A stretch of DNA of 63,184 nt, counting the filler, from Collodictyon triciliatum (Eukaryota), in the NCBI GenBank assembly GCA_043381765.1. It is 14 parts of 14 records of this genome, joined end to end, with 100 filler letters (N's around TTAATTAATTAA, not from the genome) between each part and the next. Parts side by side here need not be neighbours in the genome. Positions count along the whole stretch, not along the records: positions 31,666 to 36,085 come from JBHJMP010006120.1; 13 more parts are not named here. One strand, written 5' to 3'. Shown piece after piece: positions 29,225 to 63,184 of the stretch. Below the pieces are notes generated by a model. That model was not told the DNA's origin and ran no database searches. It saw only the letters and a list, made by a program, of their open reading frames with translations. Numbering within the stretch: the stretch's first letter is position 1; the number at the start of each line of letters is the position of its first letter. The position numbers and the translations under genes are program-made.

Positions 29225-31373
29225 TGCCAATGCCAATGCCAATGCCACCATCACAATCAACGCCAATGCCGCCATCATCATCGCCATCATCAATCCCAAT
29301 GCCGCCACCATCATCACAACCATCACACGGCGTGTGGGACCTGAGTGGAGAGCTGCAGATGGGCAGCGGGCCGTGCATCTGGACAGAGGCTGCCGACATG
29401 GACGCGGCAACCCACGCGGCCTTTGCAGCGAGCGTGCCCCACGCCGTGCAGCTGCATCTGCGCCAGGCCGGGACGCGGCTGGTTGTGTGCGTGGACGCGA
29501 CAGGGCGGGCGAGCGGGGCCGAGCGACGCAGCGGGACGCAGCAGGAGATGCAGCGGGCGGGCTTTGCAAAGGCGGCGCCGCATGCCGGGGCGGGGCTGCT
29601 GTTCCGCATGACGGGGCTGGCTGCGCATCTCTACGCGTCGCACGCGGCACGGCCGGCCCTGTGGCTGCTGCTGCTTGCGCCGGCGGAGCTGCTCTCGGGC
29701 GCGGCCATGGACCACTTCCGCTCCCTCTTCCTGGCCCGCTGGGACCTGCGCCGCGGATGCCTCTTCCCGGCTGACGCCTTTGCCGCCCCGCCAAGACACA
29801 CCCACACCCACGCCCTGGCCCTGACCCTGTGGACCGTCCAAAGCGCCCCACCTGCGCTCGTGCCCATCGCCTGCGCCTGCATCGCCCTGCCTGTGGCCCG
29901 CCCTGCTGCCCCGGGCGCCCCGCCGCGGATGACGCGCGCCACAAAGGTCCTTGTCTACCGCGCTGCGTCCGGATCTATGTCTGCATCTGGGCATAGATCC
30001 GCCCCGGCCTCCCACTGGCTCCGCGCCGCAGCCCCGCCCCATGCGCTCGCCCGCGTCCCGTCTCTCAATCTGGCGGCCGCCCTGCGTCCGACGCTCGGCC
30101 CGACGCGCAGCCCGGCACATGCCTTTGGGTATCTGCATGCAAACGCAAACAATGTGGCGCAGTCGCACGACCTTGTCGGACTCTATTCGGCTCCGTTCCG
30201 GTCGGCTCATGGCGTCGCTGTCTCGGCGGATAATGTCCTCCGTGCCGTCGCGCTCTTTGCCGCGCGCAAGGCTGTCCGCAGGTCTTGGCTCAACTACTTT
30301 GACGAGTTTGCTGCCCCGGATGACACGCATCCCTTCTTCTTTCGCTGGAATTGTGATGCCCTTGTCTACACCCTCTTTCAGGTCTGTCTCTTGCACCTAT
30401 GTTTTTGTTTATGCCCTTGAAGTTATTTACATTCATTCATTTAATTGTTTTGTCTTATATTGTTTTGATTTCATTTGATTTCATTTGATTTCATTTGATT
30501 TGTTTTGTTTTCGTGATGATTTTGCATCAGGATAAGTCCCATGTCTCAAGTCTGAGAGATATTGTGCTCGACTCCAACAAGCATGGAAAGCAAACGACGC
30601 ATGCCCAAGATGTCCCAGATTGTATCGTCAATCATTTCTTTTTCATGAGCAGGCTTGATATGTACAGGCTGGCTCTTATCATCGATTTCCATCAACTCGC
30701 TGCTGATTGTATCACACCACGTTCTCAAGATAGCACTCCTTTTCTGATTCCAAAAGAGACCTCCCTACCACATCTCCTCACCGATTCTCCTGCACAATAT
30801 GTCCACATGAGTATGACCATCCAGTTACACATCTCTCTTCGAAGCTTCTCATTTTATTAGCATTCACAGTTGCTTGGTTTTGATGCCATTAGTGTACAGA
30901 TTGTTTTTCTTTCTTTCATTCTTTTACCCTCATATTTCATTTATTGGTTCGTATTCGTCAGTATTATCAAAACATCAACATCTACACACCATTATTTGTT
31001 TTCCTTTTGAATTATAAAACATCAGCACATTCGCACAATTTAGGGCAGCACCACGATGGAAACTTGACTAAAGATACCAGCAACCCCTTATCCGAAAGGT
31101 CAGGTTCCAATTCCTCAGACGAAGACTTCACGCTTATGGAAACACAATCCCAAAGAACCGTGAAATGTCCAGTCTCTGTTATGCTCGCCCAATATAATCA
31201 TCTTCCAGTGCAAGACACCCCCGAAATTGAACATCATCCCATTTTGTGCAACGAACGGTTTATTTTTCGCTTATTGAAGGTAAAAACCTACGCTACCAAA
31301 CTCGCACTCTTTTTTTAAAAAAAATTTTTTTTTCTAGGAATGTCGCCGAGCATTTCTTATTTTATCACCCCTC
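29056..31373 (+). CDS. Intron-containing homolog of prokaryotic/phage type IIG-like N6-adenine methyltransferase plus target-recognition region; probably catalytically inactive and 3' incomplete
   Basis: Exon 1 (29056-30381) joins in phase 0 through a GT-AG intron (30382-30530) to exon 2 (DKSHVSSLR...VNHFFFMS). A later exon gives NERFIFRLLK. Motif order matches my recollection of a bacterial/phage RM family (see finding). Confidence 0.65.
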
Positions 31374-32426
31374 CTTGTATCATCTGTAAATATATATTTT
31401 TATATGTCCTTAAGTAGTCCAATTTTTTCTTTCAGTTAAGAAATAGAGAAAAGGCACAATGAAACAAAATAAATTCTTGTCTTTTCATAATAAAATATAA
31501 TGGGAAATTGAATGAACACCCCAGCCACGCCCCACCGCCGCCGCACCCACCCCCAACACCCAGCCNNNNNNNNNNNNNNNNNNNNNNNNNNNNNNNNNNN
31601 NNNNNNNNNTTAATTAATTAANNNNNNNNNNNNNNNNNNNNNNNNNNNNNNNNNNNNNNNNNNNNTTTTCTTTTGTCTATCTCCCACACATCCCCACCTA
31701 CTTTGGAACTACTTGCCTGATGGTTGAATGAAAGATTGTTGAGACGGGCTCAACAGCTAAGACTTTAAGAATAAAAAAAAATAAAAAAAACTGCGAAGAA
31801 GAACTGGAATATATGAAACCGAAAGGAAATTCAAAAAAAAAGGTGTATAAATGTCTCATATATTAAGAATGCAATCGCTCAGAAAGCAAACAAATCGTAT
31901 TCTTGACAAGGGACTTTAACAGCGCTAAAAATCTACTCAAGAAAGTTCATTTAATCCTTTGAAAAGTGCATACACCTTTCCCCAAAAAAAAAAAAAAAAA
32001 GGCTGTTAGGTCTTTCCTGGCAAGCTTCGCCACTACACAACCTCTGCGAAAAAAAGTGGTGGGACCTTGGGTACTAACGCACCAGGTTAACCAATCGAAA
32101 GGTGGTATACTCCTTCTAGTCAAGTATATAAATAAATGCAATATTTGTCATAAAGAGAGGAGAGAAACCAAGAAATAAAAAAAATTGGGTATGTGAATTG
32201 TATTGAGGGGTTATTATAAATTTGTCAGTTCATACTGCTGCTATTCAGTTTATTTCAGAGTGGAAAGAAAAGGAGAGGGAGAAGGAGGAGAAGGAGAAGG
32301 AGGAGAAGGAGAAGGAGAAGGGAAAAGAGTTAGGGTTCAAAAAAAGTTTTATCAGAATGCCAGACTAGAATCAGGCGTTATATTGTTTTCTTTCTTCGGC
32401 ACGGCAATTAGGTTATTATATTAAAA

Positions 32427-34978
32427 CTAAGCTGCATCCATAGAATCATTAGGCGTAAAATAGAACATAGAGAAATGTTGAAGGAGGTCTGGGTGTCCAA
32501 GGAATAAGTCTTGCACTTTTGTGTTTAGATCAGAAAGAGTCAAATCTCCGCTTTTGTATTCTTGCAAGGACATGAAAAACGCCCGATAGATGTGTGGCTC
32601 CTCCCGAAAGCGTGCCTATCAAAGTTTTCAAGATGAAATCACATCCAAATCTTTATGTGGTGTTATCTATAGTTAATTTGCAGTGAATTCTTATTTGCAA
32701 AGTGGGGTTGCAAAAGAAAAACTACCTTCACAAGATGCACATACTCTATAGCCTTACCGTACTCGCCGTTTGCTGTGGATTCACTTTTCCCATCAGTCTC
32801 TCGAACCTGCACGTCATCGCCGTCACTTTTGTTTTCCTGGACTGGGGATTCGTTATTGGAATCCTTGTTTACTGGGCTTTCTTGAATAAAAGCCTCAAAG
32901 TCTTTTGATAATCGAGGTTCATCGGAGAACAAAATAGGGATGATTGAGGATAGCTCTTTGAATCCGATGCTGAGTGGGTTTGCAATTGTTTAAAAAATGG
33001 GGGAAAAAAGGGAGCGGCAATCAAGTCAACTGAAAAGGATTATATTAATATAAGAATTTCAATAATATTTGAATTAAATCATAAATGCATAGTTTTAAAT
33101 CAGATAAAGAGGGGAAACAAATATTTAAACTCTATATGTCTACCTTTGTTCTTTATATTTTTTCATCACTCCGAGAAATTCAAAGTACGTTTCTGGTTTT
33201 TTCTCGTATGCAATTTTGACCTTCACATTAAGAAAAAGTGGAAGAAATAAAAAAAAAAAAAAAGTACTTATCGAAAGATGAGCCTTTGTTCATTTGGGGG
33301 AAGAGAAAACGAAAAGGTCATGTGGAATATTGAAAATATTATTTCATTCGTTACCCTCTTTAAAAATTGTCTCGCTTCGTCGATATGACCGTCTTGCATT
33401 ATGTTGTGTCTGTTTCCAATTATTGTTGAAATAGTTGACAATTGTTTGGTAACCAAAGCAAGCGTGTAATGTATAAAATTATTTAAAGAATTGAGAGTGC
33501 CATAATTTGCACAGCGAGTTAATCAATTCAATGTTAGATAAATCATGATATTACGTTTTTTTATTATGAAATTAATAGGGAAACAATAAGTGGTTAGAAG
33601 TGAATGACTAAACAATTGAGAAGTACCTGATAGTCGGAACCTGTGCAGAATCGGATATGGGATTTATGTCAGAGTCGGGAGTGACCCCCGAACCTACCTC
33701 GCTCTTGGACAACCCGTCTGAATGGCCCGCATGATTGCGATGCTGTCCTGAAGGACCCGTCAATATTGAGCTGTTCTGGGTCTGTTGTGCCGCAGACTCT
33801 GCGCAATTTGATTGCGTTGCATCGTGTGTAGAACTTGATTCTCTTCTTGGGAGTTTGCTGGCGCTGTAAGAATGTGTAGTATTTTTGTAGTGCTGAGAGT
33901 GGATGATATGAGAACGGTTGCTTTGAAAATGGCTGTGTGGCATATGTTTTTCATCGGTATTATTGGCTGATGAAGAGGAGGCGTGATGGTGATTGGGAAG
34001 AGACGAAGATGAGGACGAGGACAACGGGGATGACGGAGTGATTTGCGACATGCTTAGTAAAATCCCTTTCAGTTGGGATATAATATCTTTGACACTCGGT
34101 CGGCTGAGTGGTGGGTTGCATATCAAATCTTTTGCCAGGGCTACAAGAGGGCGTGATATGTTTTGTTCCCATGAGCCGGCGAATGAGTCCAAATGAATAT
34201 CATCAGTGCTGTTTTCATTCTTCCCACTTAAGAAATCCCATGATAGAACAGACTTTCTCGTCAGCATCTGAAAAAAATATACATTGAAGATAGGGGAGAT
34301 AAAAATGAAGTAGATTGTGGGGATATGAATAAACAATCTAAATATGTGAGGAATACAAAAGTATATACTCAGAAAATATCCACGCTTCAAAAGTTGCCAA
34401 ATACAATTTACTGTTTATCATGAATTTTTTTCCTTATTGCTTCATGAACATACCTCGATTATCAGCACACCGAAGCTGTAGAGATCTAGTGATGGTTGGA
34501 CATGCCCTGTGGCGATGTAATGAGGGCAAGTGTAGCCAACCGTCCCAACAATTCGCCGATTCCATCCAGTTTCATCATTTGTATATTGTATTAAAGCCGA
34601 AACGGCCGAATGGGAAATTCGAGCGAACGGGGCATCGATTGAACCTGCGAGCAAGATATTTCCTGAGCTGAGATGCCGATGAACCAAAGGCGCTCCTCTT
34701 GCAGGGTGGTGCAAGTGCTCCAGCCCATATGCAACTTCCAGCAACAATCGAATGCGTGTTGGGATGTTTAACCCGTGAGGTTTCTGTGCAAGGGCAGAAC
34801 GAAGACAACCATATTCATGAAACTCCTCAACTATCAGGCAAGCTTCGTCCGCACGGCCAGGGATTCCCAAAGCAATCACAGGAGCGATGTGGCTGTGCTG
34901 CAATCTAAAAGCACCGATAAAATAATCAATTTTTTCATGACGAGCTTTGAGCTATAGGTGGGATGATTTCATTTCTAA

Positions 34979-35053
<75 letters not shown>

Positions 35054-35465
35054 ATATTCATTTTTCATTTTTCATTTTTCAGAGAAAAGCAGATTTCATA
35101 ATATAGATGTATAAATATCTTGTTCGTCGACTAAAAAAAGGAAGTAAGAAAGGGAAGGGAATAAAAAAAAACCTTGAAATTAGTCCGGACCACTTAGACG
35201 AATCGTCTGCTGCAGGTGCAATAGACAGAGGCTGGTGTAAATATAGGGACTTCACAGCAACGGATCGAGAGTTTAGCGTCGCGTGGCTGACTGAGCCGAG
35301 TGGCCCGTGGCCCAACAATCGCTCGGCTTTGTCTCCTGTCTCTAATAATATCGCCTCCAAAGCGAAGCTGTTTGTAATTAACTCGAAGGGGGTTTGCGCT
35401 GCAGTCACAGCAGGCGGGACAGCCTTGACGGGGGCTTCGACACTCATCCTTTCTGCTTCTTGCAT
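32427..35465 (-). CDS. Pelle/IRAK/RLK-like (TKL) pseudokinase with two C-terminal PAH (Sin3-type) domains, about 7 exons
   Basis: Kinase: LGHGPLGSV, VAVK, VAYGLEHLH, LVHRHLSSGNILL, ARISHSA, IVGTVGY, DLYSFGV. PAH1: ARQFLKR|VKIAYEKKPETYFEFLGVMKKYKEQ|SIGFKELSSIIPILFSDEPRLSKDFEAFI. PAH2: AIEYVHLVK|ARFREEPHIYRAFFMSLQEYK...VQDLFLGHPDLLQHFSMF. Stop at 32427-32429. Confidence 0.8.
34978..35054. repeat. (AATA)n intronic microsatellite
   Basis: Perfect tetranucleotide array. Confidence 0.95.
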
Positions 35466-35905
35466 GGGTTGTCTATTTTAGATTTCTTGTGGTTTTCTGA
35501 CCAGGCGGGGTGCGCAGTAAGACGGCGGCCTTTCCACGAGCTTTTGGAGGATCACCTGAGTGTGTGTGTGTGTTTTTTTTTTTGTTTTATTTTTTACATA
35601 AGAACATAAAATAAAATAAAAGGGAAAGAATATGGAACGGGAAAATGAGAAAGGAAAAAAAAGTGACAAGGAAAAGGAAGAAGGAAGGAAAACAGCCTGG
35701 AAAGAGAGTTTGGTCGCCAAAGGAACAGATGAATCAGCTCGTGTGCGCTTCATAAAGACTGCAGAGACTTGCAAGGCGAGTGAGCAACGCAGAGAGAAGG
35801 TTTGGTGATGAGTACTTTATACTAGGAGATGAGTTGGCCCCATGTTAACAGATGAACAGGAAAGAAATAACTTAACACAGCAGGAAAAGAAAAAAGAAAA
35901 AGGAA

Positions 35906-35975
<70 letters not shown>

Positions 35976-36306
35976 AAAAAAAAGAAAGAAAAAAAAAAAA
36001 AAAAAGGAAAAAAAAAAAAAAAGGCTGGATGAATCCTGCAGCGCCACCACGCAAGGTTAGTTCTGGCAGAGCAAAAAAAAGTAAANNNNNNNNNNNNNNN
36101 NNNNNNNNNNNNNNNNNNNNNNNNNNNNNTTAATTAATTAANNNNNNNNNNNNNNNNNNNNNNNNNNNNNNNNNNNNNNNNNNNNAAAAAAAATTTGAAA
36201 AAAAAAAAAGGAAAAGAAAAAAAAAAAAAAAAAAGAAGAAAAAAAATCGGAAAAGGTCTTTAGAGTGTGCCGATCGTGCCATCTATATTCATGTGCAAAC
36301 TGAACT

Positions 36307-58669: not shown

Positions 58670-58769
58670 NNNNNNNNNNNNNNNNNNNNNNNNNNNNNNN
58701 NNNNNNNNNNNNNTTAATTAATTAANNNNNNNNNNNNNNNNNNNNNNNNNNNNNNNNNNNNNNNNNNNN

Positions 58770-61700
58770 CAATAAGACGCATAAAACAGGGTCTAATTTT
58801 GGATGAGAAGTTAAGGAGGGACCAATTGATTTAACATGTATAAAACTGAATGAGAATGTTGACATTTTATTTTATAATTGAGTTATAACAAACAAAAAAT
58901 TCTCATGAAGTAAAAGTTTACTATCTTCAAGGTCGTATTGGGTGGGTACTGTTACACTGAATGAAATCTCCGTTAAAGGGTTAGTGGAATATTCGTTGTC
59001 ATCTTTCTCCAGGAAATTTAATGCTATTGTTGACGACAACAGCCTATTATATTCTCTAATTTAGTTACTCATAATTGAGAAAAATAGTGAATTTGATAAT
59101 GCTTAAGTGATTGCAATGCCGAACCTTTCAATCATATAATTTTCTTGTTGGATTTTATCAAAAATATTCATGTCAATAGTTTCAATTATCCAAAAATATC
59201 CGCATGACTTTGATATATTGGCAGAGTCTATGAGCACTTGGGTTTTATTGATCGATAGTAGCATAGGAGTACTTTCTGGCCATACTATCATGAAAATACA
59301 CAAGAGTTTCAATGAATGTCAATATCTTTATTTAATAATCGATAAGAAAATACTTGATAAATTTAAAGCTATTAAATTGAGAAAGGAAATTTTTACTTGA
59401 ATGTGCTTCCACTCGATACATTCTTCCTTCAAATTCTGATATATCTTGTCCGCATACAAATTTTGACGTCTCTGCCATGCTCACATTGTGAATGTAAGAT
59501 ATTAATTCATGAGTAAGGTCAGTACGGACACGTGAATGTGGAACACTTCTCCTAATACTATTTTCCAAAGCTCGTCGAAGTATGCCATCGAAAGATGTAT
59601 ACAATTTCTAGCCATTACGATGATATTTCAAACGATTAGGATAGAATATTGAAGAATTATGTGATTCCGTTATAAAAATTTATTTTCAATTGCCCACATG
59701 AATTCAACTTACTCTAAATATGCTGCTTGCAACTTCGCCACCCGACTGTGCAATACTCAGGGCTGAGTTTGTTAGTTCTCCAGATAGAGCATATACATTA
59801 GCAAAGTCACTCTCAGATTCTAGAAATGCATCATTTTGGGAGACAACGAATAGAATATCTGATACCGAATTCAGTGTATCTGCAAGTTTGGCCACGGTAT
59901 TCCAGGCTTGCAATGTTGAAGAGGTGATTTGTGAGAGAATCAAGGTTCTGTTCTGGACACCTAATGTGGTGGTATCAATGGTACCTAATTCAACAAAACA
60001 CGAGTTAGATTTCGTCCTATTCAATTAAATACTACAAAATTATGCATCGAATGAACATTGATGATAAATGGTAGGTACTGATGTAAATCAGACACAATTA
60101 CGATTATCATTAAAGTAAGTAGCGATTCTTGCGAATCCAAATATTACTTAGTTGTTCCAATACGATATTTGCCGTCGAAAACACGTAGTAACTATCGTAT
60201 GATTTTTTGCCTACTTCGTTCTTGATGAAGTCGATTGAGTTAGCTAGATTGGATTCTCCACCAGAAACTTCAATATCTTTGCGTCTCGTCGATGTTGCAC
60301 CATAGAGATTGCTTATTTGACAAATGATGGTAAAGTTTCCACTGGGCATGTAAGTCTCAAGAATAGGTTTGTTTGACTTAAATAAGAATTGAGTGGAACT
60401 TGTGTTATGTCTCTGATAACTGAATGAATAAGTAAGCGGTATTTTTTCTGGGTCGTCTCTCCAATCAAGGGCTTCGAAGGTGAACATGGTGGTTAATGGC
60501 TGTCCTGTGTTTGGCCGGCATGTAAACTTTCCTCCCAGTGGCGGAGGCATGGGTGTGATATCAACCGAACTCTGTCCTGTGTTACCGTATTGATCGGTGG
60601 CGCTTACTGTAATTGTATAAGATACTCCCCAGTACATTTTGTTTTCAACGATTATTAGTGTGGTATTCCCGACACCCAAAATTATGTCTCGTCCGATTTG
60701 AAGGTATTCGTTTTCAACTGACCATAAGAATTTATATTTTGCATCAACTAATTTGGTGTTACTAGCAGAAACAAACAAGAAAACCTTTTCCTCTGCTGTA
60801 ATGAATCTGATAGATGGGGAAGTTGTAATTTGTATGCGAGGTATACTCGTCTCTCTCACAGCTAAAAGGAAAACGTATCCTATGACATATCTTTGAAACT
60901 TGGAAGCAGTCACGCGAAATCTGTAGGTGCCTGGGTTTAATGAGTCAGCTGATATTTCAAAAACGGATGAATTGATTTTGCTTAACATACAAGTATAGGT
61001 AGAGTTTTGGAGACACTCCCACTTGTATGAAAAATCTCCTTGGAGTTTGTCGTAATCGATGGCGACCGCTTTAAGTGTTGCTACCGAATTTATACTAACG
61101 GTTTGATTTCCTCCAAGTACACCTATCGAAAAAGGAGTAGGAAGAATTGTAATATTGGTAAAGTAAGTTACCATGTTTCTTTCCCCAAAGTTAGATATTG
61201 AAAGATATATGGATATTGTCTCGAAGAGGTATTTTCGGAAGGCGTTTCCCCAAAACTCAATTTTGCGCTGATGACTCATCGAATCCTGGATTCCAAAGTC
61301 TGATAACTTGCTTCCATCATTAGCTCTCATTCCCCACGTGTAGTAAGGGGCAAAAATGGTTTCTCCTGAGCATAATCGTGGTGATGAAGAAGCTGTGAAT
61401 GACACTCGAGTATTTTGAGTAATTTGTGCCGATTGAGGCCCTACAATAAATCCAGTCGGGGAATCTGTGTCTGATTTCCATACACTAATAGTTTTGGAAT
61501 CAGTTTTGCCAAATATATTTGAGACCGTCAGTTTGAAAGTGTATTCTGTATTGACAGGAAGCCATGCAACAATATCATTATCGATTGGCGAAAGATTGAT
61601 AATGGGTCCCTTCTGAGAAGAAATCAGATTGCTAAGTTCAAACAATACTCTACGAGGATTCGATCCTACAAACTCCCACAAAAACTCCAGGGAAGATACA

Positions 61701-63184
61701 CCCCCATAAGAGTTACTGGCATCTAAATACAAAGATGAACACACTCCAAATGTACTACCTCCCAGTTGCACAACAGGAGAGGGCGCAGCCGAGTATCCAA
61801 CTTGAATGGAGCCACGGCTGAATGGATATATGCTACGATCTCCATCTGACTGTCCGAAAGCCACAATTGCACTTTCATTCAATGATATGGTTGTTCCTAT
61901 GGGTATGAACCTCTGCGGATAAATCCGTAATGTTTTGGAATCTGACCATATGCACTCTGCATCAGAGCCGATTCGGAGAACTGTTTCGGAATTCAAGAAA
62001 TCTTTGCACTGACTCTTCCCTGGTACAAATTTACCTTGGTCTGTGAAATCCGTGAATCTCACAGCAATATAGCTAAAGAGCTCATCATATTTTGCCGACT
62101 CAATCAGTATTGGACTAGTAAAGTAGGAAAACTGGAAGGTGCTGACAATCGAACCGAACCCTTTCAACTCGAGTTTAATCTCGTAATTTCCGGGGACGTG
62201 ACTTGCAGGCGTGACGCTGAACAAGTGTGTAGAATTGACCATTGTAAACCATGATGGTTCTTTGTTTGGAGCATAAAACAATCGCATATCTAGTGCTAGC
62301 AATGGTGAGAATCCTCTTCCAACGATAGTAACAGATTGTTGAGTCTTGTGATGACCTCTAATTGGACTGATAGAGTTGAGTGCGATAGATTCAAAAAAGT
62401 AGAAAGGGATTTTCACATTATCTGAGCCACTCAAATATATTTCCATTCTCCCTTCTCCAACTTCAAATCCGCTCAAATTTGGGACAGTTACGATATATAC
62501 GTTCTCAGATGTATGAACGTTTTCTCCTCTCAGAAAAACTTTTTGGTTGCTGATATCGGAAAGTATCACATCTAGGGAAGTACCAAAATGATGTTGCGTA
62601 GTTATGGAAACATTGAAACCTCCAAAATTACTGCCACTAATTGGCGTGATATCAGTTACTCCAAGGGAATAGTATTCAAATATTGAATAGGCATTGATAT
62701 TACTTTTCTGACCACCAACTGTCACCACAACTGATAGCTCTTTATCGGCATTGGGTCTTGGAGGGGAATAGCACAAAATGATTTCATCACTGATCCATAC
62801 TGTTGGAGTGCAATCAAGTTCTCCAATACTGACTGATTGGTCAAATTGGTAAGGTGCAAAATTTTTGCCAGTAATGGTGATAACTTGCATGCCTGTGAGT
62901 ACTGATGCAGATGGATTTGCTTCGGTTGTAATTTCTGGGCGGTTATAAGACCATATTAGGCTGTTGGAGCTCATTTCGTAGATTTTAACATATAGATAAT
63001 GTCCATCTCCAACACCTGCAGGAGAGCGTGCGATTATCATACTTTCGTTCTGGAATACAATTTGGCAGCCTGCATTACCGAGATAAACAGAAGAAAGATC
63101 GTTGCGAGATGAGCTCAGATTTGTACCAGTTATTGTCAAAAGTGTTCCTCCTTTCGTTGGTCCAGATTTCGGGAAAACGTCAGT
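58770..63184 (-). CDS. Internal part of a large IPT/TIG + REJ (polycystin-1/PKD-REJ-like) cell-surface protein, truncated at both ends
   Basis: IPT repeats (GPTKGGTLLTITGTNL, ITITGKNF, VTVGGQKS, ISPIRG...VTIVGRGF) and REJ motifs (LDASNSYG, YTFKLTVSNIFG, PPPLGGKFTCRPNTG.PLTTMFTFEALDWRDD...PLTYSF...YMPSG) in a >1000-aa exon, plus smaller downstream exons. Confidence 0.85.

Follow-up and report, generated by a model that had tools for sequence, protein, structure and literature searches.

The DNA analysed here (the window) is a stretch of 63,184 nt from the Collodictyon triciliatum assembly GCA_043381765.1. On its minus strand, at 35465..32427, it carries an intact seven-exon gene for a soluble protein of 649 amino acids (aa), in which a kinase domain of the RLK/Pelle(IRAK)-like type (RLK, receptor-like kinase) is followed by a Ser/His-rich linker, two PAH (paired amphipathic helix) repeats of the Sin3 type, PAH1 and PAH2, and a 9-residue tail. 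By sequence comparison, this kinase-PAH layout is real and is conserved in a second organism, the free-living flagellate Diphylleia rotans, whose protein P0056 carries the same modules in one open reading frame (ORF). PAH domains are familiar as docking sites for transcription factors in a single protein family, Sin3, and plants and animals use RLK/Pelle/IRAK pseudokinases as scaffolds in signalling. The combination of the two well-known modules is apparently a new conserved architecture that has not been described. We put at about 0.6 the probability that this three-part protein, made of a non-catalytic RLK/Pelle(IRAK)-type fold, a disordered Ser/His-rich linker and a Sin3 PAH1-PAH2 pair, is a non-catalytic adaptor or a Sin3 decoy, acting by a mechanism that we infer below.

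The gene and its Diphylleia rotans ortholog

P0056 is a 685-aa protein in EukProt, where its label gives a complete ORF from one Trinity transcript. When the spliced PAH region of the Collodictyon protein was compared with a set of 152 proteins, P0056 was the sole match (E 3.8e-35; next best 0.91). The Pfam scan of P0056 gave PAH at 54.9 bits in two stretches and the kinase domain at 54.4 and 48 bits. The two proteins are collinear from their first to their last residues, the N-terminus encoded by exon 1 aligning with that of P0056, and the order of kinase, PAH1 and PAH2 is the same. No alignment gap falls at the exon 1|2, 2|3, 3|4, 4|5, 5|6 or 6|7 junctions. In the pairwise alignment, 91 of 269 aligned residues are identical in the kinase, 30 of 130 in the linker, 28 of 71 in PAH1 and 30 of 65 in PAH2, that is, 34-46% identity in the domains versus 23% in the linker. 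The repeats also correspond one to one: PAH1 matched PAH1 with 48.8 bits (cross match, 14.7) and PAH2 matched PAH2 with 52.7 bits (cross match, 23.8).

The kinase domain of P0056 is degenerate at the same sites as that of the Collodictyon protein. It reads HGF for HRD, HSI for DFG and CPY for APE, has M at the alphaC Glu position, and has lost the Gly loop (SSSIGS). The best-conserved part of the kinase between the orthologs is the activation-segment/alphaF surface, GT[VI]GY.CP.Y[IV]ATG ... DLYS.GVLI. Given the same layout and the same dead motifs in P0056, both the fusion and the loss of catalysis are older than the separation of the two organisms. The initial annotation, which had proposed a fused kinase-PAH protein, named two findings that would speak against it, kinase and PAH exons on separate transcripts and C-terminal repeats that are not PAH. 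Neither was found, and in Diphylleia rotans the kinase and the PAH repeats stand in one ORF on one transcript. When exon fragments were aligned to P0056 with MAFFT, the PAH exons came out in the wrong place, and these alignments were used neither for folding nor for profiles.

The window is composed of 14 contigs of 4415-4426 bp, ordered by size, with 100-base N/TTAATTAATTAA linkers between them (4427-4526, 8952-9051 ... 58670-58769); since these are separate contigs joined together, gene neighbourhood across the linkers is meaningless. The gene lies wholly inside one 4420-bp contig, 31666..36085 (JBHJMP010006120.1), and the sequence outside those limits is unrelated. In the gene model (minus strand, 35465..32427), seven exons make up 1950 nt that encode 649 aa and a TAG stop, and all six introns are GT-AG, in phase and 110-268 nt long. 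The start codon is fixed at the ATG at 35465, because an in-frame TAA lies 15 nt upstream within the same exon; the TAG stop ends at 32427. The extent proposed in the initial annotation, 32427..35465, runs exactly from the end of this TAG to this ATG, and the in-phase splices that it had read, ATC AG|A CAC and CAA AG|C ATC, are the exon 3|4 and exon 5|6 junctions of the model. The Ser/His-rich linker that it had placed between kinase and PAH is also there: residues 321-465 include 36 Ser and 15 His in 145 residues and match no Pfam family. The predicted protein has no membrane helix (maximum Kyte-Doolittle 19-residue mean, 1.26). The features of the gene are given below, where X1 and X2 denote contigs of two public sequencing runs.

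35466..35542, minus: 5' untranslated region (UTR) part of exon 1; AG acceptor at 35543-35544, where the X2 cDNA contig leaves the genome
35173..35465, minus: exon 1 (aa 1-98, 3' end in phase 2); start codon and start of an RLK-type N-lobe; X2 cDNA contig over 35230-35542
35295-35312, minus: Gly loop G52-G57, in exon 1
35250-35252, minus: beta3 Lys K72, in exon 1
34905..35172, minus: intron 1 (268 nt, GT..AG); exon 1/exon 2 junction carried by an X1 contig
34454..34904, minus: exon 2 (aa 98-248), pseudokinase core by Pfam PK_Tyr_Ser-Thr and by alignments to plant RLKs and P0056
34673-34681, minus: HRH at the HRD position, in exon 2
34604-34612, minus: HSA at the DFG position, in exon 2
34268..34453, minus: intron 2 (186 nt); X2 cDNA contig joins 34267 to 34454
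33627..34267, minus: exon 3 (aa 249-462); end of the kinase C-lobe (to about aa 320, 34052) and Ser/His-rich linker
33355..33409, minus: exon 4 (aa 462-480), start of PAH1 helix 1; both junctions gap-free against P0056
33144..33220, minus: exon 5 (aa 481-506), PAH1 helices 1-2; Pfam PAH below cut-off, 52% identity to P0056
32726..32969, minus: exon 6 (aa 506-587); rest of PAH1 (to 32879), acidic inter-PAH spacer (32765-32878) and first helix of PAH2
32616-32725, minus: intron 6 of the gene model; seen unspliced in contigs
32427..32615, minus: exon 7 (aa 588-649 and TAG); PAH2 helices 2-4 and 9-residue tail; Pfam PAH
32341..32426, minus: 3' UTR, as far as the cDNA contigs extend; X1 and X2 contigs begin at 32341

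Contigs of four public runs were mapped on 32200-35600, where the mapping stops at masked repeats and does not fix the transcript ends. Contigs of X1 and X2 cover most of this interval at about 99% identity. The loose ends of the X2 contigs bear a SMART-type cDNA adapter, and these contigs are therefore taken to be cDNA. One of them joins 34267 and 34454 exactly and skips the 186 nt between them, whose ends are CT..AC on the plus strand, i.e., intron 2 has been removed. In addition, an X1 contig that ends at 34906 continues with nine letters equal to 35175-35183 and thereby carries the exon 1|2 junction. The gene is transcribed, and for its PAH part the splicing in this organism is predicted from the ortholog alignment and Pfam, not from reads. 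None of the 29 coding differences between the window and X1 and X2 is a stop or an indel. On the 3' side, a masked GA-rich repeat lies just past 32341 (repeats at 32200-32330 were skipped in mapping), and the 3' end of the transcript is not fixed by the contigs.

Some minor observations concern the same locus. The X2 contig exits the genome at 35542 by an AG (35543-35544), 77 nt upstream of the ATG, and continues with 23 further letters, for which the window held no match with up to two mismatches allowed; this 23-letter 5' end may come from a spliced leader or from a 5' UTR exon that lies further upstream, on a different contig. Intron 1 contains, at 34968-35066, about 25 units of a (TATT)n microsatellite, and at 35890-36030, upstream of the gene, there are more than 100 bases of poly(A)-rich sequence. 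Simple repeats of these kinds end many contigs, and probably explain the fragmented assembly. The Rfam scan of the window gave no match.

The pseudokinase domain and its family

Pfam was scanned exon by exon with six exon translations, the 18-aa exon 4 being left out. Exon 2 matched PK_Tyr_Ser-Thr with 59.6 bits (E 3.8e-16), and exons 1, 3 and 6 matched no family. Alignment to two plant receptor kinases and to P0056 placed the retained motifs: G52-H-G-P-L-G57 (formally GxGxxG), V69-A-V-K72 and, in exon 2, the catalytic-loop Asn N180. The same exon holds GTVGYTCPHY and DLYSFGV; the region from the activation segment to alphaF (RIVGTVGYTCPHYIATG...DLYSFGVLIIEMLTRK) is well preserved, as is the RP motif of subdomain XI. 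In the same alignment, the HRD position is H173-R-H175 and the DFG position, aligned to the DFG of plant RLKs, is H196-S-A198, so that the Asp of each is gone. W92 stands at the alphaC Glu position, the catalytic-loop Lys is replaced by Ser, and the APE position is CPH, with H226 in place of the Glu.

A pseudokinase is described as a kinase domain that has lost at least one conserved catalytic or nucleotide-binding motif (PMC4718504). By this usual motif criterion, the sequence of the domain classes it as a pseudokinase, and from the five replaced hallmark residues the fold is predicted to be unable to catalyse in the normal way. The replacement of HRD by HRH and of DFG by HSA, both given in the initial annotation, is borne out by the alignment, and the VAVK and RLK/Pelle-style GTVGY...DLYSFGV motifs which it listed as retained were found at their place, the IVGTVGYTCPHY...DLYSFGV stretch being present in the kinase domain. 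Its reading of the Gly loop as GHGPLG stands as sequence; its counting of this loop as degenerate does not, since GHGPLG still fits GxGxxG.

Sequence and fold both support a place nearest to the plant RLK/RLCK (receptor-like cytoplasmic kinase) and IRAK kinases. Against the sequences of the Protein Data Bank (PDB), exon 2 matched plant RLCKs and RLKs first (57.5-36 bits), followed by IRAK4 (about 35) and RIPK3 (32.6); the top matches, of 57.5-41 bits, were ScRIPK, LysM kinases, SYMRK, CERK1, PBL2, BRI1, BIK1, SOBIR1 and BAK1. An exhaustive HMMER search over 1.84 billion representatives gave 8957 matches at E <= 0.001, and the 150 best of these were examined. Within these 150, P0056 scored 132 bits as a single domain against the spliced kinase domain, and the remainder at most 74 bits (74-60 at the top). 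All ten sequences that were looked up, namely nine of the next-best and the top multi-kinase match P0003, are land-plant RLKs or RLCKs, LysM RLK4 and PTI1-like among them. Meanwhile, the displayed rows of 30 ESM Atlas matches were all streptophyte kinase clusters. For the fold, the model of the ortholog P0056 was used, built from an alignment of plant RLKs, with a predicted local distance difference test (pLDDT) of mostly 80-97 over kinase residues 73-372. Its best PDB matches were IRAK4, SYMRK, BAK1 and BRI1 (target-normalised template modelling score, TM, 0.63-0.73), and the IRAK3 pseudokinase was also among the best. The placement is a ranking of best matches, not a tree, and plant-rich databases may bias it. 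The name Pelle/IRAK-like pseudokinase in the initial annotation agrees with the sequence rankings, the fold matches and the lost motifs.

A death domain, the feature of IRAK and Pelle, was not found by Pfam in exon 1 or in P0056, and only about 44 residues precede the kinase domain. In addition, Pfam, hydropathy and the start of the ORF 15 nt after a stop gave no sign of the signal peptide, ectodomain and membrane helix of an RLK. Judged by these predicted features, the layout is that of a cytoplasmic, RLCK-like kinase of the RLK/Pelle type, and differs from that of a true IRAK or a true receptor kinase.

The PAH pair, Sin3 and related systems

The C-terminal repeats are supported as PAH, collinear with PAH1 and PAH2 of Sin3, by sequence and by models. 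PAH2 in exon 7 matched the Pfam PAH profile (PF02671) with 38.6 bits (E 8.7e-10; cut-off 21.3) over positions 1-44 of 45. PAH1 is split over exons 4-6, and exon 5 alone reached 14.5 bits over positions 1-16 of 45, below the cut-off; when spliced, PAH1 matched the PAH1 of P0056 (48.8 bits, as given above), which itself spans profile positions 1-45 of 45. The two PAH repeats of the initial annotation, for which a Pfam scan had been proposed, are recovered in this way, PAH2 above the cut-off and PAH1 through the ortholog. Exon 7 also matched PDB chains of yeast Sin3 and S. pombe Pst1 (E ~1e-10; 2.3e-10). Residues 490-674 of P0056 aligned as a single stretch with residues 37-236 of human Sin3B, which comprise PAH1 and PAH2 (E 8.2e-18), and the two halves, taken separately, matched solved PAH1 and PAH2 domains.

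The fold of the PAH pair was tested on the ortholog P0056. Its single-sequence AlphaFold model consists of two four-helix modules (pLDDT 84-90) with a disordered acidic spacer between them. The six best PDB matches in Foldseek were all Sin3 PAH1 or PAH2 (target TM 0.65-0.91, probability 1.00, none reaching E <= 0.001), and the root-mean-square deviation was 0.8-1.1 A for the three best superposed, which were Sin3 PAH2-Ume6, mSin3A PAH1 and mSin3B PAH1-REST. The solved Sin3 PAH complexes among the structure matches hold Mad1, REST, SAP25, Pf1 and Ume6 as partners. Sin3 PAH1 and PAH2 bind amphipathic helices of transcription regulators. The remaining parts of Sin3, i.e., PAH3, the histone deacetylase (HDAC)-interaction domain (HID; Sin3_corepress) and the C-terminal domain, were not found by Pfam in the six exon translations or in P0056, and both proteins end 9-12 residues after PAH2. 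Sin3 recruits deacetylases through the HID (PMC4914931).

The protein shares parts with several known systems. In the Sin3 corepressors (Sin3A/Sin3B, yeast Sin3, S. pombe Pst1), PAH1 and PAH2 stand in the same order and can be aligned with it, and the modelled fold of P0056 superposes on PAH1 and PAH2 structures with REST, SAP25, Ume6 and Mad1 peptides; however, the window protein is without PAH3, HID and the Sin3 C-terminal domain, and has a kinase fold before the PAH pair. The nearest functional analogue of a PAH decoy is the short isoform of mouse Sin3B, which has PAH1 and PAH2 and no HID, and is described in PMC4914931 as not binding HDACs; unlike the gene studied here, it is a splice form of Sin3B, not a gene of its own, and has no kinase fold. 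On the kinase side, the pseudokinases of the IRAK family and of the plant RLCKs and RLKs (IRAK3/IRAK-M, ZED1, RKS1, LYK4) have a fold of the same family that has lost its catalytic residues. IRAK3, RKS1 and LYK4 are dead kinase folds that act as scaffolds. ZED1 has been described as an RLCK pseudokinase (PMC6634424). These pseudokinases have no PAH repeats, whereas the window protein has neither the IRAK death domain nor an RLK ectodomain and membrane helix. PAH is also listed in PMC4759884 among the domains fused to nucleotide-binding leucine-rich repeat receptors (NLRs) in A. thaliana and Z. mays, where the PAH module is read as bait for pathogen effectors. The plant NLRs with an integrated PAH resemble the window protein in that a PAH module is grafted onto a signalling protein, but the carrier is an NB-LRR (nucleotide-binding leucine-rich repeat) protein instead of a kinase fold, and the lineage and the presumed purpose are different.

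Searches for other proteins with this layout found P0056 alone. A word-index search with the whole of P0056 gave 14 matches, with PAH only on P0056 itself, and one with its residues 490-685 returned only P0056 among 604 candidates. The window protein itself was absent from a word-index search made for it, whose two matches among 638 candidates were both plant RLKs. No other protein with kinase and PAH was present in the best 150 of the 8957 HMMER matches, and weaker orthologs may exist; the displayed ESM Atlas cluster rows were of kinase-type families only, none with PAH. No description of a kinase-PAH fusion was found in a literature search at the title and abstract level. The initial annotation had called the architecture unrecognised, and none of these searches found the layout described elsewhere. 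A metagenome scan with a two-row alignment yielded three loci from 163 pattern matches, none with a PAH match (best E 0.1, AT-rich junk of locus L001). L001 is a GC-rich, plant-type kinase, and the three loci were therefore rejected as orthologs.

Possible function and other features of the window

If the protein is a non-catalytic adaptor or a Sin3 decoy, its two PAH clefts would bind amphipathic helices of the Sin3-interaction domain (SID) type in transcription regulators, as in Sin3. Because recruitment of deacetylases is impossible without the HID, the protein would then withhold these regulators from Sin3/HDAC, or be a rival of Sin3 in binding them. The pseudokinase and the Ser-rich linker might form the end that is regulated, either by docking to an active kinase or by being phosphorylated by one, a role suggested by likeness to the pseudokinase scaffolds of the IRAK family and of plant RLCKs. 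A more specific proposal, which we regard as tentative and rather unlikely in its full form, is that the RLK/Pelle-type pseudokinase, bound or phosphorylated by an upstream kinase, captures or releases SID-bearing repressors via the PAH pair, and is thus an old, dedicated shortcut from kinase to chromatin and a regulated anti-corepressor. If this were true, Sin3/HDAC targets could be switched on and off by a protein with no deacetylase of its own, and its occurrence in two protists with 34-46% identity between them would put a free-standing PAH decoy, as well as pseudokinase scaffolds of the RLK/Pelle type, far beyond plants and animals. More generally, a conserved protein that combines the two modules and cannot recruit a deacetylase would connect signalling with repression in a new way and be a natural competitor of Sin3. 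The gene adds a data point on the reach of the RLK/Pelle kinase type and of dead-kinase scaffolds beyond plants and animals; its practical weight is limited by little-studied protists, two known members and an inferred function.

Several observations weigh against an adaptor or decoy made by one spliced transcript. Introns 3, 4, 5 and 6 occur only unspliced in the contigs (X1 records 1-3; X2 records 9-11 and 13), and intron 6 is kept not only in X1 and X2 contigs but also in X3, a contig of a polyA metatranscriptome (32613-32783, 0 mismatches). If intron 6 were retained in the mature mRNA, a stop 20 codons into the intron would remove most of PAH2. The RNA origin of the X1 and X2 runs is a guess, and the contigs cannot prove one transcript. 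The ratio of non-synonymous to synonymous substitution rates (dN/dS) is 0.54 against the near-identical strain X2 (15 non-synonymous and 8 synonymous differences, p 0.12) and 0.35 against X1, the other near-identical strain (6 and 5, p 0.08), and with two such strains only, neither value differs significantly from 1. The single ortholog found comes from the transcriptome assembly of a culture, and the full-length AlphaFold model of P0056 gives no docking information (PAH pLDDT ~40, no confident kinase-PAH contact). In the kinase itself, the beta3 Lys, the GxGxxG loop and the catalytic-loop Asn are kept, which leaves room for nucleotide binding or atypical activity.

Some of these points could also be taken to mean that there is no functional fusion at all. 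In a decaying or lineage-specific functionless gene, with its frame open by luck, one would look for dN/dS values not significantly below 1, as seen against the two near-identical strains, and 9 of the 15 non-synonymous differences of X2 fall within the kinase domain. However, the 1950-nt frame is intact over seven exons, the X1 and X2 variants carry no stop or indel, the gene is transcribed, the consensus positions of the Pfam PAH profile are preserved, and the Diphylleia ortholog is collinear, with its domains better conserved than its linker. Because of this ortholog, decay is very improbable, and the same holds, to the point of hardly being credible, for a gene model in which an adjacent kinase gene and a small PAH gene were wrongly joined. 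No spliced contig runs from exon 3 to exon 4 or beyond, as such a mis-joined model would have it; but the Diphylleia transcript has both parts in one complete ORF with the same order and ends, the frame of exon 3 stays open up to a GT donor, where the junction is in phase, and the model needs no stop, start context or second promoter. In addition, one X1 contig (33175-34726) spans exon 5 to exon 2.

Other explanations accept the fusion and differ in what the kinase end does. The protein might be a Sin3 offshoot that serves as an alternative corepressor scaffold, in which the pseudokinase replaces the HID as the effector-recruiting end and couples PAH-bound factors to other machinery. Its anatomy would be the same as that of an adaptor or decoy, and the strong conservation of the activation-segment/alphaF surface fits a protein-docking surface, but the data do not separate scaffold from decoy; we regard it as doubtful. 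An atypical active kinase, whose PAH pair would recruit SID-bearing transcription factors as substrates, is unlikely. K72, the GHGPLG loop and N180 are kept in the window protein and His stands at both lost Asp positions, the His at the DFG position being also present in P0056; however, the alphaC Glu, HRD Asp, catalytic-loop Lys, DFG Asp and APE Glu are absent from both orthologs. With these five hallmark residues and the Gly loop of P0056 (SSSIGS) lost, any activity would therefore not proceed by the canonical mechanism.

The other contigs of the window hold some further features. At 28000-30500, within the contig 27147-31565, the DNA has 55% G+C versus about 38% in the assembly, and long overlapping open frames run on both strands, the longest of 478 aa; they have many Ala, Arg and Pro residues and no Pfam match. 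This GC-rich stretch could be foreign DNA or a GC-rich repeat. A 1024-aa open frame on the minus strand at 60113-63184, whose 5' side runs off the high-coordinate end of the window, encodes IPT/TIG repeats (97.5 bits), a PKD-like domain and a REJ domain (108.7 bits), and by these predicted domains it is the ectodomain of a polycystin/fibrocystin-type receptor in a protist. At 19608-21341, on the plus strand, a single open frame of 578 aa carries a glycosyltransferase family 92 domain (75.4 bits) and a C-terminal run of 17 Asn. Finally, ArfGAP exons (69.2 bits) followed by ankyrin repeats (44.3 bits) lie on the minus strand at 23782-25299, in an ACAP/AGAP-like layout.

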